DNA of 64,000 bases. Origin: Acidobacteriota bacterium (GTDB lineage Bacteria; Acidobacteriota; Aminicenantia; Aminicenantales; Aminicenantaceae). A program made the translations under genes and the position numbers. The notes under the pieces were generated by a model. That model was not told the DNA's origin, searched no databases, and saw nothing but the letters and a program-made list of their open reading frames with translations. Shown one piece after another: positions 4,670 to 24,246 of the stretch. The DNA lies in contig JAHIPL010000005.1 of NCBI GenBank assembly GCA_018894615.1, positions 1,062 through 65,061 of the forward strand. The letters are read 5' to 3'. Every line of letters starts with the position of its first letter. Position 1 is the stretch's first letter.

Positions 4670-4737
4670 GGGGCCGGCGGCCGATTGACCGGGAAACGGA
4701 AGAATGGATGTTCCGAATTTTTGATGGAGGAAAAAAG

Positions 4738-5985
4738 ATGAATGATAAACGACGGGTGAGTTTGATCGGCATATCGGCGCTGCTGATCCTTTTTGCTTCC
4801 TGTGCCGGAACGAATGAAGCGGACCTTTTGGAAAGGGCGCGGGTCATTCATGACGAGGTCCTGACCGTGGACACCCACTGTGACACTCCGATGCGTCTGA
4901 TCCGGGGGGAGTACGACATGGGCGAACGGCATGAATCCGGCGCGCGCGGAGGGAAAATCGATCTTCCCCGGATGAAGGAGGGCGGTCTGGATGCCGAGTT
5001 TTTTGCCGCCTTTGTCGGACAGGGAGAATTGACGCCGGAAGGATATGCCGCCGCCAGGGAAAGGGCCGACCGGATGATCGATGCCGTCGAAGAGATGTGC
5101 AGCCGTTATCCGGAGCTCGTGGAGAAGGCGACAACACCGGAGGATGCCGAACGGCTGGAGAACGCCGGGAAACGGGCGGCTTTCATCGGAATCGAGAACG
5201 GCTATCCCATCGGGCGGGATTTGGGTCTCGTGAAACACTTTTTTGATCGGGGGGTTCGCTCCATCACCCTCTGCCACGGCGGGGACAACGATATCTGCGA
5301 TTCCGCCACGGAAAGACGTAATCCTGAAGATGAAGGATTGAGTGAATTCGGCAGGGCGGTTGTCGAAGAGTGCAACCGTCTCGGTGTGATGGTCGATCTC
5401 AGCCATCTTTCGGAACGGTCCATCTACGATGTGCTGGAGCATTCCAGGGCTCCTGTTTTTGCCTCACATTCCAGCGTCCGGGCCCTCTGTGATCACCCGC
5501 GCAATTTAACAGACGACATGCTGAAAAAGCTTAAAGAGAATGGCGGGGTCATCCAGATTTGTCTGGTCAGCAGTTTTCTCAAAACACCCGAACCCAATCC
5601 CGAACGGGATAAGGCGCGAGAGGAACTCCGGGAACAGTACAGCACATCCGCCGACAGCGAGGATGAAGGGGTCCGTGACCGGATGCGCCAGGAATACCGC
5701 CGGATCCTTGAAAAACATCCCATGGAACGAGCCACTGTCAAGGATCTTGTGAACCACATCGATTATGTCGTTCGGCTGATAGGCGTGGCCCATGTCGGAA
5801 TCGGAACCGATTTTGACGGGGGAGGCGGCATCGACGGCTGTGATCATGTGGGCGAGATGCCTAACATTACGGTGGAACTGCTGCGGCGGGGTTATTCAAA
5901 AGAGGACATCGCCAAAATCTGGGGAGGAAATGTCATGCGCGTGCTGCGGGACGTCATCGAAACGGCTGCCGGGACGACCTCCTGA
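4738..5985 (+). CDS. Membrane dipeptidase (peptidase M19 family), lipoprotein. Start chosen at the ATG with the GGAGGA RBS; the ORF track starts at 4708.
   Basis: Lipobox LLILFASCAGT. Renal-dipeptidase-like HCDTP motif near the N-terminus and (beta/alpha)8 metallo-dipeptidase length. Confidence 0.7.
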   Translation: MNDKRRVSLIGISALLILFASCAGTNEADLLERARVIHDEVLTVDTHCDTPMRLIRGEYDMGERHESGARGGKIDLPRMKEGGLDAEFFAAFVGQGELTPEGYAAARERADRMIDAVEEMCSRYPELVEKATTPEDAERLENAGKRAAFIGIENGYPIGRDLGLVKHFFDRGVRSITLCHGGDNDICDSATERRNPEDEGLSEFGRAVVEECNRLGVMVDLSHLSERSIYDVLEHSRAPVFASHSSVRALCDHPRNLTDDMLKKLKENGGVIQICLVSSFLKTPEPNPERDKAREELREQYSTSADSEDEGVRDRMRQEYRRILEKHPMERATVKDLVNHIDYVVRLIGVAHVGIGTDFDGGGGIDGCDHVGEMPNITVELLRRGYSKEDIAKIWGGNVMRVLRDVIETAAGTTS

Positions 5986-9447: not shown

Positions 9448-9622
9448 TTGGGGACAGGCATCTTTTTTTCAAAAATATTTTTCCCCTCATTTTTTTAATA
9501 TAAAATCAGTCTTTTTTTTAGGGGAAAAGACAAATATAGTTGTTTTTCATCGAAATTAAAATAATTTTGAAAAAAAGATGCCTGTCCCCATTTATGATAT
9601 AATTTTTTTTGGATGGAGGAAG

Positions 9623-10123
9623 ATGGAAAAAAGGACATACAAGTTCTGCCCGCGCTGCGGGGCCACTCTGATGAAGGAGCAGGTCGAAGACAGACTGCGG
9701 TTCATGTGCACTCAGTGCTCCTGGATCCATTATGAGAATCCGCTTCCCTGCGTGGCGGCTCTTGTCCGGAATGAAAAGGGCGAGGTGCTTCTGATCAAAC
9801 GGGGGGTCGAACCGGCGGTGGGGAAGTGGGCTCTTCCGTCCGGATTTATCGAAATCGATGAAACGCCGGAAATAGCCTGCGTACGGGAACTGGAAGAGGA
9901 AACGGGACTGCTGGGCCGCATCACCGGTCTGCTGGGCGTATTTTCCCAGGAGTCCAGGGCCTACAACAGGGTTCTCATCATCGGCTATGCGGTTGAGGCG
10001 GAAGGAGAGCTCATTCCCGGTTCCGACTCCAGGGATGTCCGCTTTTTTCCTGCCGATGCTCTTCCGCCCATAGCCTTCTCCAGCCATCGGGAAATCGTTC
10101 AGACGTCGCTCAAGAACAGATGA
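9623..10123 (+). CDS. NUDIX hydrolase with N-terminal zinc ribbon (NudC-like)
   Basis: CPRCG...CTQC zinc ribbon; Nudix box GFIEIDETPEIACVRELEEETGL. Start placed at MEKRTYKF downstream of the inverted-repeat arm, with GGAGGA before the ATG. Confidence 0.75.
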   Translation: MEKRTYKFCPRCGATLMKEQVEDRLRFMCTQCSWIHYENPLPCVAALVRNEKGEVLLIKRGVEPAVGKWALPSGFIEIDETPEIACVRELEEETGLLGRITGLLGVFSQESRAYNRVLIIGYAVEAEGELIPGSDSRDVRFFPADALPPIAFSSHREIVQTSLKNR

Positions 10124-10986
10124 AAGTCACGCCGGAATGCTTTCCCTGTTTTTTCTCCCAGGCGGTCCGTACATGCCGGCATCTTGGGTTGGAGGACCAA
10201 CAGATATGGGACGTTCTGGAGGCGGTCCACCATCGACTTTCAGACATCAACCGGGAAGCCACTCCCTCGCGTATTGGAAAAGACGTCTACCATCTCCTTT
10301 CCGAAAAAACAGGTATTGTAGATCCCTATGAAGCCGTCAAAACAAGCTGCACACAAAAAGCGCTGGCCCTTTATCCCGATCTGAAAAGGAAGATTCGCGC
10401 CTCTTCCGATCCGTTCCGCCTTGCTGTTCGGGCCGCCATAGCTGGAAACGTGATCGATTTCGGAACAGGAAAGGACCTGGATCTTCAAAAGGACATCGAA
10501 GCCAATCTACAGCTTGAATTGGCCGTTGACTGGACGGATGAACTGCGCACCCTGGTCGAAAAGGCCCGCCATATCCTCTATATCGGGGATAACGCCGGGG
10601 AAACGGTGTTTGACCGCCTGCTGATCGAGGAATTGGAGAAACCGGTCACCTATGCCGTCCGTTCCGCCCCCATCATCAACGATGCCGTCGAAAAGGATGC
10701 CCGTCTGGCGGGACTGCATGAGGTCGCCCGCATCCTGCCCAGCGGATCCACCCTTCCGGGAACCGAATTGAAGGACTGCACGCCTGACTTCCTCGAAATA
10801 TTCCGTTCGGCGGATGTGATCATCAGCAAGGGACAGGGGAACTACGAGTGCCTCTCCGAGGAAACAGGGCCTCTCTTTTTCCTGCTCAAGGCGAAGTGCG
10901 CTGCCGTAGCCCGGGACATGGGAGTTCGTCAGGGCAGCCTTGTTCTTCTCCGCTCCCGCCTGTTTGACAGCATCCGTTCGTTGTGA
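10120..10986 (+). CDS. DUF89 (ARMT1-like) damage-control phosphatase family protein
   Basis: N-terminal CFPCF motif and GDNAGETVFD motif typical of DUF89. ATGA overlap with the NUDIX gene. Confidence 0.65.
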   Translation: MKVTPECFPCFFSQAVRTCRHLGLEDQQIWDVLEAVHHRLSDINREATPSRIGKDVYHLLSEKTGIVDPYEAVKTSCTQKALALYPDLKRKIRASSDPFRLAVRAAIAGNVIDFGTGKDLDLQKDIEANLQLELAVDWTDELRTLVEKARHILYIGDNAGETVFDRLLIEELEKPVTYAVRSAPIINDAVEKDARLAGLHEVARILPSGSTLPGTELKDCTPDFLEIFRSADVIISKGQGNYECLSEETGPLFFLLKAKCAAVARDMGVRQGSLVLLRSRLFDSIRSL

Positions 10987-11019: not shown

Positions 11020-12351
11020 ATGTCCCAAAAAACGGATGTATTCGAAAATCCCCCCTCCTTTTTGTCGAGAAGGGAGTTTGTCAAATTTCTGGCGGCCGGA
11101 ACAGCCCTGTCCGCCGCGGCTCTGACCGAGGCCAATGCTTCCGTATATCAGAGCATCACTCAATTGAACGAAAAACACATTCGTGACGAGGCGCCGGACG
11201 GCCGGTACTGGGAATCCATTCAACGCCATTTCCTCTTCGAGGACGGTGTGATCATGATGAACAACGGCACGGTCGGCCCCATGCCTAAGCCCGTCTTCAA
11301 CACCCTCATGAAAACCTTCAAGGTGCAGGTCACCAATCCTTTCGACACCTACGATTACATTCCGCGCAAGAGGGACGAGGTCCGCCGCAGACTGGCCTCC
11401 TTCATCGGGGCCTCCCCCGGGGAAGTGGTTATGACCCGGAATACGACCGAGGGCCTGAATTTCATCGTCAACGGATTGGACATGAAGGAAGGGGATGAGG
11501 CCATCCTCTCGACCATGGAACATCCCGGAGGAACCAATCCCTGGAGCCTGAAAGCCGCCCGATACGGGGTCAAAATCGTAACCGTTCCCATCGGTTTGCC
11601 CCCAAAAAGCGTGGATGAATTTGTAAGCGGTTTTGAAAAGGCGATCACACCCCGGACAAAGATCATCACCATCAGCCACACCGTGTTCATTTCAGGTTTG
11701 ATTTCCCCCCTTAAGGAACTCTGCGCCATGGCCCACGCCAGAGGCATCCCCGTTCTGGCGGACAGTGCCCACGGCATCGGTATGCTGGACCTGAACATGA
11801 AGGACCTAGGCGTCGATTTCTTCGCCACCAGCCCCTATAAGTGGCTTGGGGCCCCCTGCGGTATCGGCGTCCTGTACATCAAAAAGGACTGGCATGATAA
11901 GCTCTGGCCGACCATCGCCTCCTCCGGCTGGGACACCCACACCGACGCCCTCAGGTTTGAAACCCTGAGCCAGAGGGCCGACGCCATCATGGTCGCCCTC
12001 GGCGAAGCCCTCGATTTTCAGGATCATATCGGGAAGACCCGGATCGAACGGCGCATCAAAGCCCTGGCCGCCTACCTGAAGCAGGAGCTGAAAAAAATAC
12101 CCGGCATCAGACTTCACACGGCTGATGATCCTTACATCAGCGGCGGTCTGACGGCCTTTTCCGTCGAGGGGGTGGATCACGGGACCATCGTCGATTACGT
12201 GCGGCAGCGTGACAATATCGTCGTTCGAACCGTGGGGGATGTCAAACAGGGAACTCACGGCATCCGTGTTTCCACACCTATCTATATCAATTACAGCCAT
12301 ATCGACACACTGGTGGAAGGGATCAGAACGCTCGCCGCTCACAGGGGCTAA
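11020..12351 (+). CDS. Class V aminotransferase-fold PLP enzyme with twin-arginine (Tat) signal peptide
   Basis: Tat motif SRREFVKFLAAGTALSAAALTEANA; PLP-lysine motif TSPYKWLGAPCGIG; cysteine desulfurase/IPN-epimerase-like fold and length. Confidence 0.7.
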   Translation: MSQKTDVFENPPSFLSRREFVKFLAAGTALSAAALTEANASVYQSITQLNEKHIRDEAPDGRYWESIQRHFLFEDGVIMMNNGTVGPMPKPVFNTLMKTFKVQVTNPFDTYDYIPRKRDEVRRRLASFIGASPGEVVMTRNTTEGLNFIVNGLDMKEGDEAILSTMEHPGGTNPWSLKAARYGVKIVTVPIGLPPKSVDEFVSGFEKAITPRTKIITISHTVFISGLISPLKELCAMAHARGIPVLADSAHGIGMLDLNMKDLGVDFFATSPYKWLGAPCGIGVLYIKKDWHDKLWPTIASSGWDTHTDALRFETLSQRADAIMVALGEALDFQDHIGKTRIERRIKALAAYLKQELKKIPGIRLHTADDPYISGGLTAFSVEGVDHGTIVDYVRQRDNIVVRTVGDVKQGTHGIRVSTPIYINYSHIDTLVEGIRTLAAHRG

Positions 12352-12574
12352 AAGGCGATTTCCTCTCCGGCTCAATCCCGCCTGCATTCCGTCCGGCAGG
12401 ATCCTTTCCTTGTCGCTGCGGCAGCAAAATGTTGTTTTGCCGTTTTGTTTGGGACTTTATATAATAAGTTCTTTTTTGTCCTGAATGAAGAGGAAAGAAA
12501 AAAGAGTGGAAAGAATAAATAGATCGGATACATGGTTTCAGCGGTGTGCCGGCTTCAGGGTGTCAATCGATTGA

Positions 12575-13777
12575 ATGATGAATGAGGGAATGAATCCGAT
12601 ATTGCTCGTCACGGCGGTTTTAGTCGTCCTTGCCGCCCTCTTTTTTCTTGAAAAAATGAATCATAACCGCCGACTGCGGCGGATTCCGCTGCGCATCTGT
12701 GTGACGGGAACAAGGGGCAAATCCAGCGTGACGCGGATGCTCATCAGTATTCTGCGGTCCTCGGGAAAAAGGGTGGTGGCCCGGACGACCGGGAGTGAGC
12801 CCATCCTTCATCTTCCCGATGGAACGGAACATCTCCTGCGCCGCAGAGGGAAGCCGAACATCCTTGAAGGAAAGCGTATTGTCCGGGAAGCGGTCCGTCA
12901 AAAAGCAAATGTTCTGGTGTCGGAATTGATGGCTGTTCAGCCCGAAACCCTTCACATGGAGTCCGCTTTTATTTTTCAACCCCAACTTCTGGTGGTCACC
13001 AATGCCCGGGCGGATCACCTGGACACCATGGGTGTCTCGCCGTCGAAGATTGCGAAGAGCCTGACGGCCGCTTTTCCGCGGGGAGGGACGGTGTTTCTGC
13101 CCGAAGAAGAGTTGGATCCTGCCTTCGAAAGGGCGGCGGACGAAAGGGGATCCGTCATCGTGAGGGTGTCCACCGAGGAGGGACCGCTTCGAGATGAAGA
13201 AGAGGACCGTCCTCTTGAATTTTCCGTCAACCAACGTCTGTGTGCGGCTGTCGCCCGCAGCCTCTCCGTTGAGGAGAACGGGATTATAAACGGTCTGGCC
13301 GGGTACAGGCCGGATTTCGGCGCACTCAGAGTCTGGGAACTGGAGTCCGGCAAAAAACGGAGATCTATTCTGGCGGTCAGTGCCTTTGCCGCCAATGACC
13401 CTCTATCCACCCGGATGGCGCTTGAACGTCTGAGAGTGAAGACGGAAGGATACAATCAGCGTATCGGTCTGTTGAATCTTCGGGCGGACAGGGGAGACAG
13501 AACCCGTCAGTGGCTGAATGCTCTTTCGGAGGAGAGGTTTCTGGATATCCGCGAATTTGTGCTTCTGGGAGAACCTGTGCGTCCTGTTCGGAAAAAGCTT
13601 CAAGCGGCCGGATACAGCGTTCCCTGTGTCTTCGGGCCGGGTGTTCCGCCGGATGTCCTGATGAACAGTCTGTTTGACCGGTTTGGCGGCGGATTTGTGC
13701 TGTTTGGGATGGGAAACATGGCGGTTGCCGCCGCCAGGTTGGTGCGGTACTGGGAAAAAACAGGGGAAAAGGCATGA
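12575..13777 (+). CDS. pgsB: Poly-gamma-glutamate synthetase PgsB/CapB (Mur-ligase-like)
   Basis: N-terminal TM then RICVTGTRGKSSVTRM, aligning with B. subtilis PgsB RVNINGIRGKSTVTRL; Mur ligase core. Confidence 0.8.
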   Translation: MMNEGMNPILLVTAVLVVLAALFFLEKMNHNRRLRRIPLRICVTGTRGKSSVTRMLISILRSSGKRVVARTTGSEPILHLPDGTEHLLRRRGKPNILEGKRIVREAVRQKANVLVSELMAVQPETLHMESAFIFQPQLLVVTNARADHLDTMGVSPSKIAKSLTAAFPRGGTVFLPEEELDPAFERAADERGSVIVRVSTEEGPLRDEEEDRPLEFSVNQRLCAAVARSLSVEENGIINGLAGYRPDFGALRVWELESGKKRRSILAVSAFAANDPLSTRMALERLRVKTEGYNQRIGLLNLRADRGDRTRQWLNALSEERFLDIREFVLLGEPVRPVRKKLQAAGYSVPCVFGPGVPPDVLMNSLFDRFGGGFVLFGMGNMAVAAARLVRYWEKTGEKA

Positions 13778-14211
13778 TTGTTGAAACATTTGTGATCGGT
13801 ATTGTGCTGGCGCTCCTGTTTGCGGAACTGACCGATATCTACCCCGGGGGCATCGTTGTTCCGGCCTTTCTGGCTCTTCACGGCGGGGAACCGGCTAAGA
13901 TTCTTCTCACTGTGGCGGCGGCGGGCCTGGCCTTCGGATGCGTTTTCTGTATTTCCCGGGTGGTCCTCCTCTTCGGAAAGCGGCGCTTTGTCCTCTGCCT
14001 CCTGTTCGGGGTGTTCTGGTCGCTTGCGGCCGGGCTGCTCCTGCCGGACCTGTTTGTACAGGGGCAGGAACTGAGGGTGATCGGATGGATCGTCCCCGGA
14101 CTTCTGGCCAATACGCTGATGCGGCAGAAGGCGCTGCCCACATTCGCCGGCCTGGTGGTTGTGACGAGCGCCGCCTATTTTGCGACGGGGTTGCTGTCCT
14201 CTCTGTATTGA
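13774..14211 (+). CDS. pgsC: Poly-gamma-glutamate biosynthesis membrane protein PgsC/CapC
   Basis: 145-aa polytopic membrane protein starting MIVETFVIGIVLALLFAELTDIYPGGIVVPAFLAL, similar to the CapC N-terminus; translationally coupled to pgsB. Confidence 0.75.
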   Translation: MIVETFVIGIVLALLFAELTDIYPGGIVVPAFLALHGGEPAKILLTVAAAGLAFGCVFCISRVVLLFGKRRFVLCLLFGVFWSLAAGLLLPDLFVQGQELRVIGWIVPGLLANTLMRQKALPTFAGLVVVTSAAYFATGLLSSLY

Positions 14212-14215
14212 CGGG

Positions 14216-15370
14216 ATGGGGAAAAGACGGACCATGACTTTGAAAAGCGGGCGAAACGGGGGAAAAAAGAATCGCCTTTCCTTTTTTCCCTATCCCAAGC
14301 CGGAAGGCCGGTTGCACCAAAAACGCCTTGTCGGTGTTGCCTGCCTGGGTATCGTTCTCTATGCCGCTTCCCTTTTATTTGGAGCAAATACCGAATTGAA
14401 AAAGGATATGCGCAAGGCTTCCCGTCTGATGGAGCAGGCTCTGGTGTCGGTTCGGGACTGCCGTGTCTCCCGAGGGATCGCCATGGAGGAGACCAGCGAC
14501 ATCAACAGGACGGGGCTCATCGGATGGGAGCATTCACCGATCACCACGTCTATCGGGCATTTGGAGGCGAAGCGGACGACGACCAACCCCAATTTTGCCG
14601 GCCTGCTTGTCTATCTTCTCTCCCAGGCGGGAGTGAAAAAGGGAGATGTCATCGCGGTCGGCGCATCCGGGTCTTTTCCTGCGCTGATTGTGGCCACCCT
14701 CTGCGCTTCCAGGGCTCTAGAGCTCGAGCCTGTCGTCTTTCTCTCCCTCGGAGCATCCCAGTGGGGTGCCAATCTTCCGGAGTTTCACGCGCTGGACATG
14801 TGGCGGTGCCTTGGGGAGGACGGGATTGTTACTTTCAAGCCGGCCGCCCTTTCCCTGGGAGGGGTGCAGGATATCGGCCGGGAGATGTTGCCTGAAGGGC
14901 GGCGGATCCTGCAGGGGGCTCTGGAGGCATCGGGCACCCCGGTTTTTAGGGACAGCCCCCTCGAAAATAATGTTGCGGAACGTATGCAGTTGTACCTTCA
15001 ATCCGCCGGGGGCCGGCCCATCAAGGCTTTTGTCAACATCGGCGGCAGCTGGGCCAATATGGGCACGGATTCGGTCATCCTCGAGGTCGAGCCCGGCTTG
15101 TCAAGGAGCGTCCCTCTTCCTCCGGTCCAGCGACGTGGTGTGATTCAGGCCATGGCAGCCCGGGGCATTCCGGTTATTCACTGCCTGTTTATCAGGGGGC
15201 TGGCGTCGGAGTACGGGCTTCCCTGGGACCCGAAATCCCTCCCACCGGCCGGCCGCGGGGCTCTCTACCGGATGCCGAATGGCCGCAGCCTTGTGTTTTT
15301 GATGCTGGGATTCGTTTATTTCCTCACGGTTTTGTTGTGGGTCGGACTGGAGTTTCGTTCGAGAAAATAA
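14216..15370 (+). CDS. Poly-gamma-glutamate system accessory protein (a family replacing PgsA in three-gene cassettes). N- and C-terminal TM segments, no metallophosphatase motifs. Start uncertain: TTG 14180, ATG 14216 or ATG 14234.
   Basis: Directly follows pgsBC. The large extracytoplasmic domain lacks the CapA/PgsA GNHE/GD motifs. Assignment rests on genomic context and recollection of a pgs-associated family. Confidence 0.45.
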   Translation: MGKRRTMTLKSGRNGGKKNRLSFFPYPKPEGRLHQKRLVGVACLGIVLYAASLLFGANTELKKDMRKASRLMEQALVSVRDCRVSRGIAMEETSDINRTGLIGWEHSPITTSIGHLEAKRTTTNPNFAGLLVYLLSQAGVKKGDVIAVGASGSFPALIVATLCASRALELEPVVFLSLGASQWGANLPEFHALDMWRCLGEDGIVTFKPAALSLGGVQDIGREMLPEGRRILQGALEASGTPVFRDSPLENNVAERMQLYLQSAGGRPIKAFVNIGGSWANMGTDSVILEVEPGLSRSVPLPPVQRRGVIQAMAARGIPVIHCLFIRGLASEYGLPWDPKSLPPAGRGALYRMPNGRSLVFLMLGFVYFLTVLLWVGLEFRSRK

Positions 15371-15378
15371 GTCCTGAT

Positions 15379-16548
15379 TTATTCGTAGACGATCCGGTTG
15401 GGATCGGCCGTGGCCGGATTTTTAAGGAAGGCTCCGACCCCTCTGTCGACGATGTCGGAATAGCGGGGAACACCGGAGACCACCAGCCCTCTATCCGCTT
15501 TTTCCTCGGTCCAGAGTTCGAAGATCTGAAGCAGAGTGGAGCAGTGGCGGCCGACGCGAAGGGCGATGGGCCAGCCGTTTTCGTCGATTTTTTCAAACAG
15601 AAGTCCGTGTTTTCCCGCTCGAACGATAAACCGGTCCTTTCCTTCCAGAAGGAGTTTTCTGTCCGTCCTTCCGCGGGTGGCGTCGAGGAAGGGCTCGGGT
15701 GCCTCCAGCAGCAGGGAAATGGCGTCCGTGTGATCGCCGATCTCCCGGTGGCTCAGTCCCCGGAGGGCCTCGGGCGAGTTTTCCATGCCGATATTGAATC
15801 CCTCCATGCCCGAGATCATCATAGAGGAAAAGGCGGCCAGATCCTGACCTTTGGAATGGGCGACGATGGTGCTGATGACGGGGTACTGGAGTTCGGCCTC
15901 ATGAAGGTCGATGACGATGTCGATCCCCTCTTTTTTAATAAGTTCGGTCATGGCGAAGCAGGTCTGTTCGGTCAGCGTCCCGTGGGGCCGGCCGGGCCAG
16001 GTGCGGTTGATATTCCGAATATCGATGTAGGCCAGTTCCTGTCTGGAGGGGTAGTGGATATAGATCTCCGGATCGGGCCACTGGTCGAGAGGATTGGACC
16101 AGCGATCTCCCATACGGAAAGTCCGGCTGCCGAAGTTGGTTTCGATGGAGTAATCCGTCGGGTAGGCCCCGCCCAGCCGTGTGACCGTTGTCGCGCTTCG
16201 ATTGGTGGAGAGAATGAGGAAAAGCCGCCCTTTTTGAACGACGGCATTTTCGGCAAATATCCAGGCAGCAAGACGTCCGGCGGGTTCCTCCGGATGGGAG
16301 CCGCCCAGGACCAGGATCGCACCTCCCGGTTCCTCTCCTTCCAGGACATAGACATGGGCGTCATTGATGGTGCCGCTTATCCCGTCGAAATAATCGCTGA
16401 GATTTTTGACATCCGTAACCCCGGGGCCGAGAACGACCGGTTCTCTCAGGTTGCGGTGGCGGTAAAACTGTAATCCGGCGGAGATGAGGACAACGAGGGC
16501 CAGGAGGGAAAATGCTGTTTTACGCAGTGTGGCGGCGTGATCTTTCAT
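15379..16548 (-). CDS. Secreted M14-like zinc peptidase (succinylglutamate desuccinylase/aspartoacylase-carboxypeptidase fold). Candidate gamma-glutamyl hydrolase.
   Basis: N-terminal signal/TM LLALVVLISAGL; zinc motif GGSHPEEPAG (HxxE) with a downstream His; convergent with the pgs operon. Confidence 0.5.
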   Translation of the reverse strand: MKDHAATLRKTAFSLLALVVLISAGLQFYRHRNLREPVVLGPGVTDVKNLSDYFDGISGTINDAHVYVLEGEEPGGAILVLGGSHPEEPAGRLAAWIFAENAVVQKGRLFLILSTNRSATTVTRLGGAYPTDYSIETNFGSRTFRMGDRWSNPLDQWPDPEIYIHYPSRQELAYIDIRNINRTWPGRPHGTLTEQTCFAMTELIKKEGIDIVIDLHEAELQYPVISTIVAHSKGQDLAAFSSMMISGMEGFNIGMENSPEALRGLSHREIGDHTDAISLLLEAPEPFLDATRGRTDRKLLLEGKDRFIVRAGKHGLLFEKIDENGWPIALRVGRHCSTLLQIFELWTEEKADRGLVVSGVPRYSDIVDRGVGAFLKNPATADPNRIVYE

Positions 16549-16557
16549 GGTCGTTTC

Positions 16558-16707
16558 CTATTTCAGGCGGAGAAGGCGCAGAATAAAGGGCAGCAGGACG
16601 ATGAGGTAAAGAATTTCATCCTGCCATTTTTTACTGCGCAGAAAATTGATCATCAGCAGAACGGCGACGGCCGCCGCCAGAATGTAGTACATAACGGTTA
16701 TCATCAT
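16558..16707 (-). CDS. Small hydrophobic membrane protein (49 aa); it has no ORF-track entry because it is under 60 aa.
   Basis: Translation MMITVMYYILAAAVAVLLMINFLRSKKWQDEILYLIVLLPFILRLLRLK. Sits 10 nt downstream of the permease gene on the same strand. Confidence 0.35.
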   Translation of the reverse strand: MMITVMYYILAAAVAVLLMINFLRSKKWQDEILYLIVLLPFILRLLRLK

Positions 16708-16717
16708 TCTATTCTCT

Positions 16718-18004
16718 CTAAAGCATCGTTAAAAAAGCGAGTTTTTTGCTGAAGAGGACCATCAGCGTTCCGACGACCGCAATCAGCACGGCCGGGATCA
16801 GACAGTGTTTGAGCATTTCCCTGTAGGGCTCTTCCATGTGGACCGTATCCTTGGTCAGACGTCCGATGATGGCGGTGGGCGGCAAGGCGTCACCCAGAGG
16901 CCAGATGACACTCATGCCGGCCAGAGCGACGATAGGGTTGAGCCCGATGGTGTTGAACAGGAGCACAAGCGGGACGCCGAGCACGGGCGCGGCTCCCCAC
17001 ATGAGGACGGCCTCGGAAACGGGAAGTGTCAGAGCGAGGGTGGCGACCACGATAAACACGGGAAGGGTCACCACTGTAACCGCGATGAGGCCCCGGACAC
17101 CGGTGAGAGTCATGATCTGTACCAGAATTCCGACACAGGTCAGGGTGCCGATGAGGGGGAGGAGCTGCCGGATGGTATCCCGTGCTATTCGGAATACGGA
17201 CAGTCGGATCGGAGACAGGAGGAGGGACAGCAGGGCGGAGACGACAAACATCAGGGGCAGACCCACGATGGGAAGACTATGGGGCCAGACTCTCCCCGCT
17301 GCGATGAGGAAAAAGAAGGCGACAAAGGGAAGAATAACACGCAGCCAGTTCATTTTGTCCGGGGCCTCCGGCAGTTCCTTCAGGGCCTTGTCGAGGTCGA
17401 CCCGTTTGCCTTTCCAGCCCAGAATAAAGATTGTCAAAAGAGAAAGAAGGACACAGGGGATGAGAAGGGGCAGGAAAAATCCGACATAGGGCATATTGAC
17501 GCCGGCCGCTGTGAGCATGGCCCACAGGCTCACCGGAGGCGCTGCGGCGCTCAGCCCGGCGATGATGAACACGATGGCCGCTGTCCTCGGGCGGGACAGA
17601 CCCATGTAGCCGAGAACGACGGCGATCATGCCGCCTGTGATAAGCACGGTGACGCTTCCCGCACCGGTCAGTGCGCCCGGGATGAGGAGGATCAGGGTCA
17701 GCAGTAGAAAAAGGAGAATCTTGCTGTGGTGAAATTTCCTGAGAATGCCACGGATGACAAAGGCCACGCCGCCGGATTCCTTGAGCAGGTTCATGAAAAA
17801 AGTGGCGGTGATAAAAATCAGAATGATGTCCAGGTAGGTGAAGGCGCCCTCGGCGATGTGCCGGGCCGGGATGCCTGCTCCTCCGGCAAGGGCGCCGGCG
17901 AGGGCGGCGAAAAACATGGACAGTTCGGTGGAGATTTTAAATAATTTGGCCAGAATATAGGCGGCCACCATGCTGAGGAGAATGATTTCAGGGGAGAGAG
18001 TCAT
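16718..18004 (-). CDS. Polytopic permease, ion-transporter superfamily type (TRAP-DctM/GntP/DcuC-like, about 12 TM). Probable organic anion transporter.
   Basis: 428 aa, highly hydrophobic, with repeated G-rich helices. The family assignment is by overall architecture only. Confidence 0.4.
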   Translation of the reverse strand: MTLSPEIILLSMVAAYILAKLFKISTELSMFFAALAGALAGGAGIPARHIAEGAFTYLDIILIFITATFFMNLLKESGGVAFVIRGILRKFHHSKILLFLLLTLILLIPGALTGAGSVTVLITGGMIAVVLGYMGLSRPRTAAIVFIIAGLSAAAPPVSLWAMLTAAGVNMPYVGFFLPLLIPCVLLSLLTIFILGWKGKRVDLDKALKELPEAPDKMNWLRVILPFVAFFFLIAAGRVWPHSLPIVGLPLMFVVSALLSLLLSPIRLSVFRIARDTIRQLLPLIGTLTCVGILVQIMTLTGVRGLIAVTVVTLPVFIVVATLALTLPVSEAVLMWGAAPVLGVPLVLLFNTIGLNPIVALAGMSVIWPLGDALPPTAIIGRLTKDTVHMEEPYREMLKHCLIPAVLIAVVGTLMVLFSKKLAFLTML

Positions 18005-18031: not shown

Positions 18032-18652
18032 CTACCGATGAAAAAGCTTTTGGATTTCGGAAATCAGATCCAGATTTTTTTCCACTTCGATGAGCGGGAT
18101 GTTTTTTTCTTTGGCGATGATGCTGAAACGGTTGTCTGAATTACCTTCCTTGTGGATGAGGAGAATGTCGGAAAAGGGAGCGACGGCGTCGATGCTCTGT
18201 TCATCCGTTGTGTCTCCGGCTGACGCACCCTGGGAACGGCGTTTCATGCCTTCGATGTGGGAACCGATGACGGTCATTCCCTGCTTTTTCGCTTCCGCGA
18301 TCAACGCTTCCGTCCGGCTCAGTTCATCCTCCATGGAAATGCCGGCCGCTCCCATGCCTTTGAGGCTGGCGCCCATGACGATGATGAGGGTTTTGAAAGG
18401 CGTGCCGGCTTCCTTTCCGGCTTTGAGGTCCTCTGAACTGGCCATTTCGGAGATCTCGTAAGCGATGGGATCGTATTCGAGCTTAGCCCGCATGAAGATG
18501 ACCTTCAACATGGCCGGGCCCGGGCTTTGGCCGCAGGATGTGATGAGGACGGGAAGTTCCGGCTTGGGCCCTTCGGGCTGGGCTGTCGATACGACGCTGC
18601 AGAGCATCAGAACGACCGCTGCCGCAACAACCACCCTGTATAATCTATGCAT
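18032..18652 (-). CDS. Secreted alpha/beta protein of unknown function (signal peptide)
   Basis: Signal sequence MHRLYRVVVAAAVVLMLCSVVSTAQP; no recognisable motif. Lies between the LarA-like and permease genes on the same strand. Confidence 0.4.
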   Translation of the reverse strand: MHRLYRVVVAAAVVLMLCSVVSTAQPEGPKPELPVLITSCGQSPGPAMLKVIFMRAKLEYDPIAYEISEMASSEDLKAGKEAGTPFKTLIIVMGASLKGMGAAGISMEDELSRTEALIAEAKKQGMTVIGSHIEGMKRRSQGASAGDTTDEQSIDAVAPFSDILLIHKEGNSDNRFSIIAKEKNIPLIEVEKNLDLISEIQKLFHR

Positions 18653-18713: not shown

Positions 18714-20090
18714 TCAACTATTGGGGTCAGGCCTCAAAAGGGGAATGGCGTAGGGGCCGTCCTTGAGGATGGCGATGCGGGGGGGGCGGTTCAAGCGGCG
18801 CCTGAGCGCAGCGACGGTCCAGTCGACGGTTCTGTTCAGCAGGACGGAAAGATCCTTCGTCCGGGCGGTGATGGTCTGTGCGTCCGTTCCCGGAATCCAG
18901 TCGAAATCCTTTTCTCTTATATCCGGACAGCAGTAGAGAAGGTGGTCGGGAGGAATGATCCGAAAGAGCCGTGCCCACATCTGGGGCTCCCACTGCTCCG
19001 GAACAAATGTCCAGTCGGGATCTTTAATGGCCTGTTCGTACATGTCCGGTCCCAGATCATTGAGCAGCCGGAGCATTTTTTTATAATGTGGGCCGCCGAT
19101 GGGATCGTTATCCGGGTGGCGGGCGGCGAGAATGCAGTATCCGTCCGGTTCGAGAATGGACGCGCAGACCGCTCCGGCTTTGGCCGCCTGGTAGTGGTTG
19201 ATGCCGACAAATCCCGCATGGGTGATGACAAGATCGTAACGGTCACGGACGGGAATGCCGACGTAGGATTGAAGGCAGCGGACCGCGGATTTGTGGGCTT
19301 CGACCAGATCGCCCGAAAAGACCCCGGACAGAGAATATTCGGCGTTCAGGGTGACATTGACGATAAAATCGCACCCGACCATGCGCGCAACGGCAAGAGC
19401 TTCCTCGTGGACGGGATTGCCTTCGAGGACCAGGTCGGCCGCTTTGGGGGAGGAGAGAATATGTCCGCCGTGAATGAGCTGTGTGCAGTGTTCGCCGATA
19501 AGGCCCGGGCAGATGGATTTTCTTCCCCCGGACGCACCGGCCATGAAGTGACTTTCAACGAGGCCGGTCAGGATTTTGATGTCTGCATCCCGGTAATGGC
19601 GGTTGATGAGGATTTTCCCGAGGAGAGGACGGTCGCCGATATGCACCAGATCATCCATTCGACGGCAATCGTGGTTGAGGACCTGAATGCCGTTCCGGAA
19701 AACATCGTCCGGTAGAAGGGCGCGAACGGCTTTTTCATTCAGCGGATGATGGGTGCCCGTGGCGATAAGAAGCTGAATGGCGGATTCCTTCAACCCGGCT
19801 CTCTTCATTTCCTGAAGAAGGGGGACAAGAAGACCCTCTTTCCCTTTGTAAGGAACAGGACGTGTGTTGTCGGAAAGAACCACAACGGCCCGGGCCTCAG
19901 GGTTTGCCCTGAGGCGGGATCGAATGATGTCCTTCAGGGGAGGCGAACCGATGGGCTTTCGAAGCGACCGTTCGATTTCTTCGCGGGGATTCCGGAGACG
20001 GGGAGCCGCGCCCATTTGGAGAACGACGGCCCCCGCGGGAACCTGCAGCGTCAGTTCCGTATGGCCGAGATCCAGTTTGATCGTGTTCAT
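18714..20090 (-). CDS. LarA-family protein (nickel-pincer-nucleotide-dependent 2-hydroxyacid racemase/epimerase family, DUF2088)
   Basis: LarA-like length and motifs: ATGTHHP (metal-binding His pair region), AGASGGRKSICPGL (GGRK with the cofactor-tethering Lys) and later conserved His residues. Confidence 0.65.
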   Translation of the reverse strand: MNTIKLDLGHTELTLQVPAGAVVLQMGAAPRLRNPREEIERSLRKPIGSPPLKDIIRSRLRANPEARAVVVLSDNTRPVPYKGKEGLLVPLLQEMKRAGLKESAIQLLIATGTHHPLNEKAVRALLPDDVFRNGIQVLNHDCRRMDDLVHIGDRPLLGKILINRHYRDADIKILTGLVESHFMAGASGGRKSICPGLIGEHCTQLIHGGHILSSPKAADLVLEGNPVHEEALAVARMVGCDFIVNVTLNAEYSLSGVFSGDLVEAHKSAVRCLQSYVGIPVRDRYDLVITHAGFVGINHYQAAKAGAVCASILEPDGYCILAARHPDNDPIGGPHYKKMLRLLNDLGPDMYEQAIKDPDWTFVPEQWEPQMWARLFRIIPPDHLLYCCPDIREKDFDWIPGTDAQTITARTKDLSVLLNRTVDWTVAALRRRLNRPPRIAILKDGPYAIPLLRPDPNS

Positions 20091-20298: not shown

Positions 20299-20982
20299 AT
20301 GACAGGTCCTTCGTTACTGAATCTTCTCTCCCTGAAGGATCAGGTCTATGATTATCTTCGGGAGCGAATGAAAAAGGGTGAACTGCGGCCAGGTGCCGCC
20401 ATCAACACGGATGAAACCTCCGAGAGGCTCGGCATCAGCAAAACTCCGCTCAGAGATGCGCTCATCCGGCTCGAGGTGGAAGGATTTGTCACCATCCTCC
20501 CGCGGCGCGGTGTCATTGTGAACAGGCTGTCCCTCGCTGAAATAAAAGATTTTTATCAGATAATCGGCGCCCTGGAAAGCACGGCTCTTCTGTCCGCCGC
20601 TCCCCGGATGGGCGTCCGGGAGGTCGAGCGGATGAAGCGTCTGAACGGGCGGATGCGCGACGCTCTGGCCAAAGACAATTTTGAGCTGTATTACAACCAC
20701 AATCTGGCCATGCACAATGTTTATATCGATGTCTGCGGAAACGGGACAATCAGATCCACCCTTGACACTTTAAAAAAGCGTCTCTATGACTTTCCACGCT
20801 CACCCGATTTTATCAAGGAATGGGAAGAACGCTCCACGGAGGAGCATCAGACGTTTATTCAGCTTCTCTCCGATGGGCGGTTCGACGAGGCGGCCCTTTA
20901 CATGCGGGACGTGCACTGGTCTTTCGAGGTTCAAAAACCATTTCTTGTGAAATACTACTCGATTGAAGAAGATCATGTATAA
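20299..20982 (+). CDS. GntR-family transcriptional regulator (FadR/FCD subfamily)
   Basis: N-terminal winged HTH LGISKTPLRDALIRLEVEGFV; C-terminal all-helical FCD-like ligand domain. Confidence 0.85.
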   Translation: MTGPSLLNLLSLKDQVYDYLRERMKKGELRPGAAINTDETSERLGISKTPLRDALIRLEVEGFVTILPRRGVIVNRLSLAEIKDFYQIIGALESTALLSAAPRMGVREVERMKRLNGRMRDALAKDNFELYYNHNLAMHNVYIDVCGNGTIRSTLDTLKKRLYDFPRSPDFIKEWEERSTEEHQTFIQLLSDGRFDEAALYMRDVHWSFEVQKPFLVKYYSIEEDHV

Positions 20983-21880
20983 AGGCATCATTTTCGACAT
21001 CAAGCGCTATGCCATCCATGACGGCCCCGGCATTCGGACCACGGTTTTTTTAAAAGGCTGCCCGCTTTCCTGCCGGTGGTGTCACAATCCGGAGGGGATC
21101 GAGAGCGGGAGGCGGCTGATGTTCCGGGACAACCGGTGTCTGGGATGCGGAGAATGTGCGGCGGTCTGTCCCGAAGGCGCAATTGATCTGAAGGATGGAA
21201 AAGCCTTCGTCCGGCCCTCCGCCTGCCGCCTTCATTCCGCTTGTGTGGATGCCTGCCCCACCGAGGCCCTTCAGATGATCGGCCGTCTCGTGACCCCCCG
21301 GGAGATGATGGAGGAGATCGAAAAGGATCGCGTCTTTTTTGAAGAATCCGGCGGCGGTGTGACATTTTCAGGGGGCGAGCCCCTGGCTCAATTCCCTTTT
21401 CTGCTGGAATGCCTGCAGGCCTGCCGGAAAGCGGGGATCCGCACCTGCGTGGACACCTGCGGCCTGGCTTCCTCTGAGCACCTCGCCGCCGCGGCCGCAT
21501 TCACCGATCTTTTCCTCTATGACATCAAGGTGATGGATGAAGCGCGGCACATCGAAGCAACGGGAGTGTCCAATCGATCGATCCTCGCCAACCTTAAAAA
21601 ATTGTCCGCGGACGGGCATTTCATTATCGCCCGCATCCCCCTGATCCCCGGCATCAACGACGACCGGGACAACCTCCGCCGGACCGTTCGGTTTTTGCGG
21701 GAGAACACACCCCTTCGACGGATCAGCCTGCTGCCCTATCACACCATCGCCGATCAGAAATATGCCCGTCTTCAGGAGACCCGGAGAATGGAGAGGATTC
21801 AGACTCACTCCCAAGAGGAGATTCAGACCATCACCACATTCATCCAGGATCTCGGTCTGGAAGTGAGAATAGGAAGTTAA
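20963..21880 (+). CDS. Glycyl-radical enzyme activating protein (radical SAM with extra ferredoxin-like clusters)
   Basis: CPLSCRWCHNPE radical SAM cluster; CLGCGECAAVCPEGAI and CRLHSACVDACP auxiliary clusters; GGEP motif. Overlaps the GntR gene by 20 nt. Confidence 0.85.
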   Translation: MKKIMYKGIIFDIKRYAIHDGPGIRTTVFLKGCPLSCRWCHNPEGIESGRRLMFRDNRCLGCGECAAVCPEGAIDLKDGKAFVRPSACRLHSACVDACPTEALQMIGRLVTPREMMEEIEKDRVFFEESGGGVTFSGGEPLAQFPFLLECLQACRKAGIRTCVDTCGLASSEHLAAAAAFTDLFLYDIKVMDEARHIEATGVSNRSILANLKKLSADGHFIIARIPLIPGINDDRDNLRRTVRFLRENTPLRRISLLPYHTIADQKYARLQETRRMERIQTHSQEEIQTITTFIQDLGLEVRIGS

Positions 21881-21882
21881 AA

Positions 21883-24246
21883 ATGAACAAACGCATTCAT
21901 CGATTAAGAGAACAATCACTGACCGTCAAACCCGGTATTTCCGTGGAACGGGCCCGTCTGCTCACGGAATTTTATACAGATCCCGAATCCGCCTCTCTCT
22001 CCGTGCCTGTTTGCCGGGCTGCCGCTTTTCGGCACATCATGGCCAACAAAACCGTCTGCATCAACGAGGGAGAGCTCATCGTTGGAGAGCGGGGGCCCTC
22101 TCCCAAGGCGACACCGACCTATCCCGAGATCACCGTTCACAGCGTGGAAGATTTCGAGATCCTGAACTCCCGTGAAAAGACATCCTATTCCGTGGATGAG
22201 AAGAGCAAAGCCGTTTACCGCGACACGATCATCCCCTTCTGGAAGGGGCGGTCCATCCGGGATCGAATTCTTTCATCCGTATCGCCGTCCTGGATGGATG
22301 CTTACGAGGCGGGGATCTTCACGGAATTTATGGAGCAGAGGGCGCCGGGTCACACCGTTCTGGATGACAAGATCTACCGTAAGGGGATGCTGGACTTCAA
22401 AAGGGAGATAGCGGAGAGTATCGCCCGGCTGGATTTCCTGGAGGACCCGGAGGCCTTCGACAAGCGGGAACAGCTCAGAGCCATGGACATCGCCGCGGAG
22501 GCCCTTATCTGTTTTGCCGGGCGGCACGCGGAAAAAATCGATGAAATGGCGGCGAACGAAAGCGATCCCTCCCGCAGAAAGGAACTGGACAGGATGGCCG
22601 ATGTCTGTCGGAGGGTCCCGGCCCAAGCCCCGCGGGATTTCTGGGAAGCCCTGCAGTCCTACTGGTTCGTCCACCTGGGAGTCATCACCGAACTGAACGG
22701 GTGGGATTCCTTTAATCCCGGCCGTCTGGACCAGCATCTGTTTCCGTTCTATAAAAAAGGGCTGGAGGACGGCTCTCTCACAGAAGAGGGGGCCCGGGAG
22801 CTGCTTCAGGCGTTCTGGATCAAGTTCAATAATCAACCGGCGCCGCCCAAGGTGGGTGTCACGGCTGAGGAAAGCGGGACTTACACCGATTTCGCCCTTA
22901 TCAACACGGGCGGGGTGAAGGAGGACGGATCGGATGCCGTCAACCCCCTTTCCTATCTCATTCTGGATGTCATCGAGGAGATGCGGATTCTTCAGCCCAG
23001 CTCGTGCGTCCAGCTCAGCAAGAAGAATCCGGAGAGTTTCATTCACCGGGCCATCAAGGTGATCCGGACGGGATTCGGCCAGCCCTCGATTTTTAACACG
23101 GACGCCATCGTTCAGGAACTGGTCCGGATGGGGAAAACCGTCGAGGATGCCCGCAACGGAGGCGCCAGCGGATGTGTGGAAGTGGGGGCTTTCGGTAAGG
23201 AAAACTACACATTGACGGGCTACTTCAATATGGTCAAGGTCCTGGAGATCACTCTGAACAACGGCGTCGATCCCCGGACGGGAAAAACCATCGGCCTTCA
23301 AACAGGAGACCCGGCGGGATTCAATTCCTTTGAAGAGCTATTTTCCGCCTTTCGCCGCCAGATCCGTCACTTTGTCGACATCAAAATCGAAGGGAACAAT
23401 ATCATCGAGCGGCTTTACGCACTCCATGTCCCGGCCCCCTTTCTCTCTCTGCTTATCGACGACTGCATTCTGAAGGGAAAGGACTACCATGAGGGCGGGG
23501 CCCGCTACAACACCTCCTATATTCAGGGCGTGGGCATGGGCTCCATCACGGATTCTCTGACGTCCATCCTCTACCATGTCTACCACAAAAAAGATCTGAC
23601 CATGGCCGGGCTGCTGAAAATGCTGGCGGAAGATTTCGAGGGGGCTGAAATCTGGCGGCAGCGCTTTCTCAATAAAACCCCGAAGTACGGAAACGACGAC
23701 GACTACGCCGACGATGTCATGCGCTCCATTTTTGAAGTGTACTACGAGACCATCGACGGCCGGCCCAATACAAAAGGCGGAACCTACCGCATCAACCTGC
23801 TGCCGACGACCGTGCACGTCTACTTCGGAAAAGTGACCGGAGCCACACCCGACGGGCGACGGGCGAATCAGCCGCTTTCCGAGGGCATCTCTCCCGTCCA
23901 GGGAGCGGACCGCCAGGGGCCGACGGCCGTCGTCAAGTCGGCGGCAAAAATGGACCATGTGCGGACGGGCGGCACGCTTCTCAATCAGAAATTCGCCCCG
24001 TCTCTTCTGGCCGGACAGGAAGGGGTGGCCAATCTCGCTTCCCTCGTCCGGTCCTATTTCAAGATGGACGGGCACCATATCCAGTTTAATGTCGTCAGCG
24101 CCGACACGCTCCGCAATGCAAAAGACAATCCGGAACAATACCGGGATCTGATCGTCCGGGTGGCCGGCTACAGCGATTATTTCTGTGACTTGAGCGAGGC
24201 CCTTCAAAATGAGATCATTCAGCGAACCGAGCACGAAGCGTTTTGA
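21883..24246 (+). CDS. Glycyl radical enzyme, single-Cys 1,2-eliminase class (CutC/HypD/GDH-like), substrate unknown
   Basis: C-terminal glycyl radical motif RVAGYSDYF; active-site loop GGASGCVEVG (Cys-x-Glu as in dehydratase/lyase GREs, not the PFL Cys-Cys); 787 aa. Confidence 0.85.
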   Translation: MNKRIHRLREQSLTVKPGISVERARLLTEFYTDPESASLSVPVCRAAAFRHIMANKTVCINEGELIVGERGPSPKATPTYPEITVHSVEDFEILNSREKTSYSVDEKSKAVYRDTIIPFWKGRSIRDRILSSVSPSWMDAYEAGIFTEFMEQRAPGHTVLDDKIYRKGMLDFKREIAESIARLDFLEDPEAFDKREQLRAMDIAAEALICFAGRHAEKIDEMAANESDPSRRKELDRMADVCRRVPAQAPRDFWEALQSYWFVHLGVITELNGWDSFNPGRLDQHLFPFYKKGLEDGSLTEEGARELLQAFWIKFNNQPAPPKVGVTAEESGTYTDFALINTGGVKEDGSDAVNPLSYLILDVIEEMRILQPSSCVQLSKKNPESFIHRAIKVIRTGFGQPSIFNTDAIVQELVRMGKTVEDARNGGASGCVEVGAFGKENYTLTGYFNMVKVLEITLNNGVDPRTGKTIGLQTGDPAGFNSFEELFSAFRRQIRHFVDIKIEGNNIIERLYALHVPAPFLSLLIDDCILKGKDYHEGGARYNTSYIQGVGMGSITDSLTSILYHVYHKKDLTMAGLLKMLAEDFEGAEIWRQRFLNKTPKYGNDDDYADDVMRSIFEVYYETIDGRPNTKGGTYRINLLPTTVHVYFGKVTGATPDGRRANQPLSEGISPVQGADRQGPTAVVKSAAKMDHVRTGGTLLNQKFAPSLLAGQEGVANLASLVRSYFKMDGHHIQFNVVSADTLRNAKDNPEQYRDLIVRVAGYSDYFCDLSEALQNEIIQRTEHEAF

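Follow-up and report, generated by a model that had tools for sequence, protein, structure and literature searches.

The DNA analysed, hereafter the window, is a 64,000-nt stretch of contig JAHIPL010000005.1 (assembly GCA_018894615.1, positions 1,062 to 65,061) from an Acidobacteriota bacterium assigned by GTDB to the Aminicenantaceae. The closest database entries for all the genes considered here are metagenome-assembled genomes (MAGs) labelled Candidatus Aminicenantes or Acidobacteria. The subject is a three-gene cassette, pgsB, pgsC and a third gene designated sys, that encodes a putative poly-gamma-glutamate synthase system and lies between a gene for an exported pyridoxal phosphate (PLP) enzyme and a convergent gene for a zinc hydrolase. 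Earlier inspection of the sequence alone had led to the proposal, here called the original prediction, that these five genes together make and trim a gamma-glutamyl polymer, with the two flanking enzymes as candidate accessory functions. All five genes are present where they had been placed, and are listed here with a promoter-like site upstream of pgsB.

11020-12351, plus strand: PLP enzyme of the class V fold (Aminotran_5, E=1.6e-52) with a twin-arginine translocation (Tat) signal; a neighbour, outside the cassette
12437-12465, plus strand: promoter-like site with the sequence TTGCCG-17-TATAAT, within the AT-rich 223 nt (12352-12574) that separate the PLP gene from pgsB
12575-13777, plus strand: pgsB, by homology a gamma-glutamyl ligase of the Mur-ligase type that depends on ATP, with a hydrophobic anchor at its N-terminus
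13774-14211, plus strand: pgsC, small polytopic membrane partner of PgsB
14216 (or 14234)-15370, plus strand: sys, poly-gamma-glutamate system protein (TIGR04332)
15379-16548, minus strand: zinc hydrolase, a divergent member of the AstE/AspA (M14-like) group, convergent to sys with 8 nt between the stop codons

The window genes were scored against the cut-offs of the curated NCBI hidden Markov models (HMMs; NCBIfam/TIGR) and against Pfam gathering scores. PgsB exceeds the TIGR04012 equivalog cut-off (278.1 versus 222.7 bits, with residues 11-392 of 400 covered), contains a Mur_ligase_M domain (PF08245, 38.7 bits versus a gathering score of 24) and has a P-loop, GTRGKSS at residues 44-50, that corresponds to the GxxGKS/T ATP-binding motif of Mur ligases. 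PgsC also passes its curated cut-offs, TIGR04011 with 100 versus 96.45 bits and PF14102 with 109 versus 27 bits. The pgsC gene directly follows pgsB, its ATG overlapping the pgsB TGA in the sequence ATGA, and 4 nt separate the pgsC stop codon from an ATG at 14216 in the third gene. The original prediction of a clear and coupled pgsB-pgsC pair is borne out. The promoter-like site at 12437-12465 matches the consensus at 10 of 12 positions and is, from its position, a candidate for the cassette's own promoter; it is a consensus match only, and such sites, which occur in both gaps flanking the PLP gene, are no more frequent region-wide than in shuffled sequences (7 found, 5.4 expected). Rfam gives no match between the PLP gene and pgsB, and the idea of a riboswitch or another RNA element there was dropped. 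Just past the sys stop codon, within the 3'-end of the convergent hydrolase gene, a hairpin followed by a T-run (15404-15417, plus strand), again a consensus match only, could terminate the pgs transcript.

The sys open reading frame called mechanically extends from a TTG at 14180 to 15370, with ATG codons at 14216 or 14234 the likely starts. The encoded protein scores 325.4 bits on TIGR04332, well above the cut-off of 100, with profile positions 7-307 of 307 matched. The original prediction had placed the third gene in a family of poly-gamma-glutamate system proteins that replace PgsA, and this match identifies it as such. Its product has no match to any Pfam family at E≤10, hence no PGA_cap/PgsA domain, and because of this it is not a PgsA/CapA protein, as had also been proposed. 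The further description of the protein as bitopic has to be revised. A confident AlphaFold2 model (pLDDT 92.5, pTM 0.88), built on 71 diverse family members, has predicted transmembrane helices at residues 25-48 and 353-377, one at each end of an alpha/beta domain of ~300 amino acids. Both termini are rich in positive charge and so, by the positive-inside rule, the alpha/beta domain should face the periplasm. No solved relative of the predicted fold was found. Across the 71 sequences, the positions that do not vary are K113, S147 and the four structural residues G97, P149, G178 and G288, while conservation reaches 90% or more at D89, D213 and R250. A Ser-His-Asp triad suggested by the window sequence (GASGS...H316...D332) was ruled out, as neither H316 nor D332 is conserved family-wide.

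TIGR04332 is a large family, with 1256 clusters at 50% identity (E≤0.001), and the NCBI and JGI databases already list the third gene of many Aminicenantes MAGs under the name "poly-gamma-glutamate system protein". In the literature we found no proven product for any TIGR04332-type cassette, no paper on such a cassette in Aminicenantes and essentially none on TIGR04332 itself. The cassette type is already catalogued and annotated, and the remaining novelty lies in the TIGR04332 domain, not in the flanking genes. Some TIGR04332 proteins are longer, at 546-683 amino acids (P0276, P0338, P0353, P0370 and P0373), and carry an extra domain without a Pfam match. At one such locus (L088:1529-3544) a 671-amino-acid form of sys follows pgsB-pgsC and is itself followed by genes for a 399-amino-acid protein of unknown function, a protein with an FGE-sulfatase domain, an HGSNAT-like acyltransferase and an S9 peptidase.

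To establish which genes travel with the cassette, 160 related loci were compared, 80 from Aminicenantes species and 80 from metagenomes that represent a distant TIGR04332 lineage. The Aminicenantes loci were found with a 17-sequence subset of the sys family as query, which matched almost only Aminicenantes. The distant loci came from a scan of a metagenome collection with a TIGR04332 subgroup that was chosen by clustering the 50%-identity representatives and is ~35% identical to the window protein. The order pgsB-pgsC-sys is kept in every one of the 160 loci that has enough sequence, and it is the only invariant unit among them. Homologs of the zinc hydrolase, of the PLP enzyme and of two further window genes described below, encoding a permease-like protein and a DUF6305 protein, occur in none of the 80 distant loci (E<1e-3), and no flanking family is common to more than five of them. 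The original prediction had made its fate depend on a family-specific match for the third gene and on conserved synteny of the flanking genes; the match exists, and the synteny with pgsBC is confined to a single phylum. Over very large phylogenetic distances the three cassette genes stay together as a unit independent of their neighbours, and adjacency, even when repeated within one phylum, is insufficient to define a module. Polyglutamate cassettes of this type, without PgsA, are routine in the Aminicenantes, a widespread lineage of uncultured anaerobes.

The cassette genes have diverged more than their neighbours in the same loci. When the window is compared with loci L004 to L086, PgsB, PgsC and sys are 35-44%, 42-56% and 45-59% identical, respectively, whereas the values are 66-76% for the hydrolase, 72-82% for the permease-like protein, 75-82% for a sigma-54 regulator and 64-74% for the PLP enzyme. 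This suggests that the genes for the surface polymer either evolve fast or are exchanged. Aminicenantes sequences filled the lists of homologs, with identities of at least 67% among the listed hydrolase and PLP enzyme homologs and of 42-58% among those of sys.

Downstream of the cassette, a minus-strand string of genes, headed by one for a LarA-like protein from which a regulator gene diverges, ends with the zinc hydrolase.

16558-16707, minus strand: 49-amino-acid hydrophobic protein, its gene separated by 10 nt from the preceding permease-like gene and by 9 nt from the hydrolase gene that follows
16718-18004, minus strand: 428-amino-acid polytopic membrane protein, probably a permease
18032-18652, minus strand: DUF6305 protein (PF19823, 8e-45) whose N-terminus resembles a signal sequence; its gene opens the DUF6305-permease-49-amino-acid protein-hydrolase unit
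18714-20090, minus strand: LarA-like homolog of nickel-pincer 2-hydroxyacid racemases (Lar_N, 1.9e-43), under all NCBIfam equivalog cut-offs, heading the string
20299-20982, plus strand: GntR/FCD regulator, divergent from the LarA-like gene

The five genes of the string are separated, from the LarA-like gene to the hydrolase gene, by 61, 27, 10 and 9 nt, and wherever a related locus is long enough to show it, the hydrolase gene is accompanied by the DUF6305, permease-like and 49-amino-acid protein genes, with order and strand unchanged. The 428-amino-acid protein, which is 72-82% identical across Aminicenantes and always beside the hydrolase, has, as its sole indication of a family, a sub-threshold match to DctM, the large subunit of TRAP transporters (PF06808, 13.9 versus 23.8 bits, E=0.024), and no PDB or NCBIfam match. 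The 49-amino-acid protein is called as a gene of 48-49 amino acids in related contigs and is found by tblastn in 36 loci. For the DUF6305 protein there was no PDB relative, and no literature on DUF6305 was found. Beyond the regulator gene lie genes for a radical-SAM activase (20963-21880, plus strand) and a 787-amino-acid PFL-like glycyl-radical enzyme (21883-24246, plus strand), and the same enzymes flank LarA in locus L001.

The hydrolase itself was originally described as a secreted zinc peptidase of the M14/succinylglutamate desuccinylase fold, and the first part of that description is not established, as positive charge is similar on either side of the one hydrophobic helix at the N-terminus. 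Membership of the M14-like AstE/AspA superfamily is supported by several lines of evidence. The only Pfam family that matches at E≤10 is AstE_AspA_cat (PF24827), and this match is weak, 21.5 bits versus a gathering score of 25; about half of the hydrolase homologs, many of them 71-77% identical, have a precomputed PF24827.2 match. A search at E≤0.001 recovered 4217 related proteins. A profile of 24 homologs detects 2qj8 in the PDB with E=3e-5 and DoeB (6twl/6twm), 3na6 and 3cdx with E-values of 1e-3 to 1.3e-2. The residues of HPEE (H85 and E88), N179, R182 and the histidine of DLHE (H216) are invariant in these homologs and align with the corresponding segments of 2qj8 and DoeB. The structure model is poor (pLDDT 55.9) and its top Foldseek matches, all AstE/AspA or M14 proteins, are not significant. 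The protein thus shares with succinylglutamate desuccinylase, aspartoacylase and DoeB the HxxE...H zinc ligands and an Asn-Arg carboxylate-binding motif, and differs from them in falling below the family gathering score, in having the N-terminal membrane helix and ~60 extra residues, and in always being encoded with the permease-like, 49-amino-acid and DUF6305 proteins. The string as a whole most likely serves the uptake and hydrolysis of a carboxylate or N-acyl-amino acid, and the four-gene unit has the look of an uptake-plus-hydrolysis system.

Upstream of the cassette, the PLP gene also belongs to a gene string of its own.

9578-10123, plus strand: NUDIX hydrolase, overlapping the ARMT1-like gene
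10120-10986, plus strand: ARMT1-like damage-control phosphatase; the PLP gene starts 34 nt after it

In the PLP enzyme the Tat motif, SRREFVK, precedes a hydrophobic stretch and the residues ANA. The twin arginines are present in all 120 homologs and the strict form [ST]RRxF[LVIM]K in 103, so that the Tat signal recognized in the original prediction is not in doubt. The window enzyme and the 8 homologs inspected all have SPYKW, the motif with the PLP lysine. The best PDB match is 4w91, an "aminotransferase" for which no function is given, and PvdN (5i90, E=2.3e-34) comes a close second; the PvdN model NF051467 is the second-best NCBIfam model, with 139.7 bits, far under its equivalog cut-off of 650. 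By sequence, PvdN is the nearest functionally characterised relative. The two enzymes share the class V fold, Tat export and the PLP lysine, and the window enzyme differs in having no pyoverdine context and, as conserved partners, NUDIX, ARMT1-like, DUF362 and DUF6599 proteins. A cysteine desulfurase (SufS/CsdA, TIGR01979) was considered and rejected, with 167.4 bits obtained versus 475.1 required. In SufS the catalytic cysteine lies in the C-terminal active-site loop region; the window enzyme has only two cysteines, in KELCAMA and GAPCGIG, and none after residue 281.

When related loci are inspected from the side of the PLP gene, it ends a block of NUDIX/ARMT1-DUF362-(DUF6599)-PLP genes in six of seven. 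In four loci (L005, L006, L169 and L171) genes for a radical-SAM protein and a GntR-aminotransferase, on the opposite strand, lie between the PLP gene and pgs, and locus L170 has the PLP block and no pgs. Viewed from the side of pgs, only 3 of the 57 Aminicenantes loci with sufficient upstream sequence have a PLP gene at most 300 nt from pgsB, and 8 of the 35 scored over 8 kb have one within that distance. Genes for a GWxTD protein (11 loci) and for a fusion of M28 and M19 peptidases (14 loci, median gap 132 nt) are commoner immediate upstream neighbours of pgsB. By these sequence comparisons, the PLP gene closes the upstream NUDIX-ARMT1 block and is tied to that block, not to pgs. Across Aminicenantes, this family of PvdN-like, cysteine-less and Tat-exported PLP enzymes is usually encoded after DUF362 and DUF6599 genes that overlap by 4 nt (L169:8069-11332 and L171:8121-11332), and DUF362, DUF6599 and the PLP enzyme may form a periplasmic three-gene system. 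The DUF362-DUF6599 pair is absent from the window.

Taken together, the most probable explanation of the locus, in which we have fairly high confidence, is that a self-contained pgsB-pgsC-TIGR04332 cassette lies between two unrelated transcription units whose genes are bystanders. By homology to Bacillus PgsBCA, membrane-anchored PgsB together with PgsC would add glutamate residues through gamma-amide bonds in an ATP-driven reaction at the cytoplasmic face of the membrane. The alpha/beta domain of sys, on the outer side of the cytoplasmic membrane, would then move the growing chain off the synthase and out, so that sys would be a non-homologous replacement for PgsA that does the job ascribed to PgsA. 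The three coupled genes would probably be transcribed from their own promoter in the 223-nt gap, and the closeness of the PLP and hydrolase genes to pgs would reflect a chromosomal order kept among Aminicenantes rather than a shared pathway. The comparison with PgsBCA(E) of Bacillus subtilis and CapBCADE of Bacillus anthracis is close for PgsB and PgsC, which are orthologous by the curated HMMs, for the B-C-third gene order, for the translational coupling and for a membrane-anchored third protein with an extracytoplasmic domain. It fails for the third protein itself, which in the window has neither PGA_cap nor any other Pfam domain, has two transmembrane helices and has an alpha/beta domain unlike any solved structure found. 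The window operon also lacks PgsE/CapE and a GGT-type CapD, and the host is presumably diderm.

Some published and genomic observations weigh against a cassette that makes and exports a glutamate homopolymer independently of its neighbours, and each is given here with the alternative that it favours. The first concerns the product. The capBCA genes of Francisella tularensis have the same three-gene architecture, and the name poly-gamma-glutamate system protein has been given to their CapA (PMC5362203), a likeness by annotation; they are needed for virulence, are not involved in capsule production, and their product is unknown (PMC4688374). The window cassette could, likewise, make no free or capsular glutamate homopolymer and instead add gamma-glutamyl units to some other acceptor, or make a short oligomer, with K113 and S147 having a catalytic role, as in a transferase or hydrolase, rather than a role in export. 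The invariance of these two residues beside the four structural ones in the 71-sequence alignment, and a fold without a solved relative, are consistent with such a role. Against it, PgsB and PgsC both pass polyglutamate synthase cut-offs at the equivalog level, no acceptor-specific gene is conserved beside the cassette in the 160 loci, and the Ser-His-Asp triad is excluded by conservation. We consider this alternative unlikely, although it has the best claim after synthesis and export of polyglutamate by a self-contained cassette.

The second set of observations concerns the downstream unit. Among the 48 Aminicenantes species with at least 8 kb of sequence beyond the cassette, 32 have the hydrolase unit downstream of pgs, always convergent and, in 14 cases, within 300 nt. 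This might reflect a functional link that is specific to Aminicenantes, in which the DUF6305, permease-like, 49-amino-acid and hydrolase proteins, but not the PLP enzyme, serve polyglutamate turnover by cleaving the polymer and importing gamma-glutamyl units. The pairing of the hydrolase with a permease-like protein fits this idea, and the hydrolase sequence NRTWPGR aligns with the NLNRxFPGR motif of solved AstE/AspA-family enzymes. In M14-type enzymes, the Asn-Arg of such motifs binds a free carboxylate, and each residue of polyglutamate has one, so this feature would suit polyglutamate as substrate. In the remaining 16 species, one third of the total, the cassette has no such unit nearby, and in several of these (L005, L006, L169, L171 and others) pgs and LarA are kept with only the unit missing. 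Conversely, in locus L001, which lacks pgs, LarA and the hydrolase unit are followed by an SNF transporter. None of the loci of the distant pgs lineage has the unit, the predicted membrane orientation of the hydrolase domain is ambiguous, and inherited gene order suffices to explain the adjacency, because the neighbours are 64-82% identical and the genomes close. A peptidase beside any gene is, moreover, unsurprising because the genome is rich in peptidases, as illustrated within the window by an M19 membrane dipeptidase (4708-5985, plus strand) and an M28 peptidase (24326-25930, plus strand). We therefore regard a link of the downstream unit to polyglutamate as distinctly improbable, and a separate transcription unit inherited beside the cassette as the better account.

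The remaining observations would favour the five-gene module of the original prediction, in which the PLP enzyme would interconvert or modify glutamate outside the cytoplasm and the hydrolase would trim or release the polymer. All five genes are adjacent in the window, and the arrangement recurs in L004/L077 and, with small gaps, in L032. In B. subtilis pgdS is immediately downstream of pgs, and PghP, a zinc enzyme that hydrolyses gamma-polyglutamate, is related to carboxypeptidase A (PMC4497714). PvdN, which is Tat-exported and periplasmic, acts on a gamma-linked glutamate, that of pyoverdine, which has a free alpha-amino and alpha-carboxyl group and is converted into succinamide (PMC6206403). 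In loci L008 and L010 just 22 nt separate the PLP gene from pgsB, so that the two could be co-transcribed in those lineages. Even so, such a module is very unlikely, given that each flanking gene is part of a different and tighter gene string, that the PLP gene so rarely abuts pgsB and neither flank is found in the distant loci, that each unit occurs without the other, and that the hydrolase gene, on the opposite strand and in another operon, encodes a protein with no sequence match to PgdS, PghP or GGT/CapD at E≤10 and, as far as a low-confidence model allows, no PghP structure in its Foldseek top 50.

A trimming enzyme beside pgs is plausible in principle because of the pgdS precedent and because other Aminicenantes have peptidase genes in line with the cassette, with no specific evidence pointing to the window hydrolase. 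Tailoring of the polymer by the PLP enzyme is likewise conceivable because the N-terminal residue of the polymer would, as in the PvdN substrate, be a gamma-linked glutamate with a free alpha-amino and alpha-carboxyl group. By analogy, where the PLP gene abuts pgsB (the window, L004/L077, L008 and L010), a PvdN-like enzyme might tailor this residue, with the hydrolase and permease recycling gamma-glutamyl units; we give this very little credence. If it were true, N-terminal capping would shield the chain from GGT-type exo-hydrolysis.

In other Aminicenantes, the cassette has further neighbours. A 781-amino-acid protein, the M28+M19 fusion noted above, is encoded directly upstream of pgsB in 14 species (L082:5831-8176, plus strand), and in L002/L003 a C69 dipeptidase gene (L002:11230-12798, minus strand) follows sys by 2 nt, in line with pgs. 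By position, both are better candidates for polymer processing than the window hydrolase. The most constant neighbour of the cassette in Aminicenantes, either way counted, is a gene designated p193 for a protein of ~190 amino acids with two N-terminal transmembrane helices and no family match (L051:3165-3746, minus strand). In 17 loci without the hydrolase unit (L051, L005, L006, L014, L017, L024, L035, L036, L042, L044, L047, L048, L050, L053, L054, L064 and L067), p193 is convergent to sys and lies -13 to +84 nt from its stop codon. The window has no p193; where the hydrolase unit and p193 are both present, p193 is located between the permease-like gene and the DUF6305 gene.

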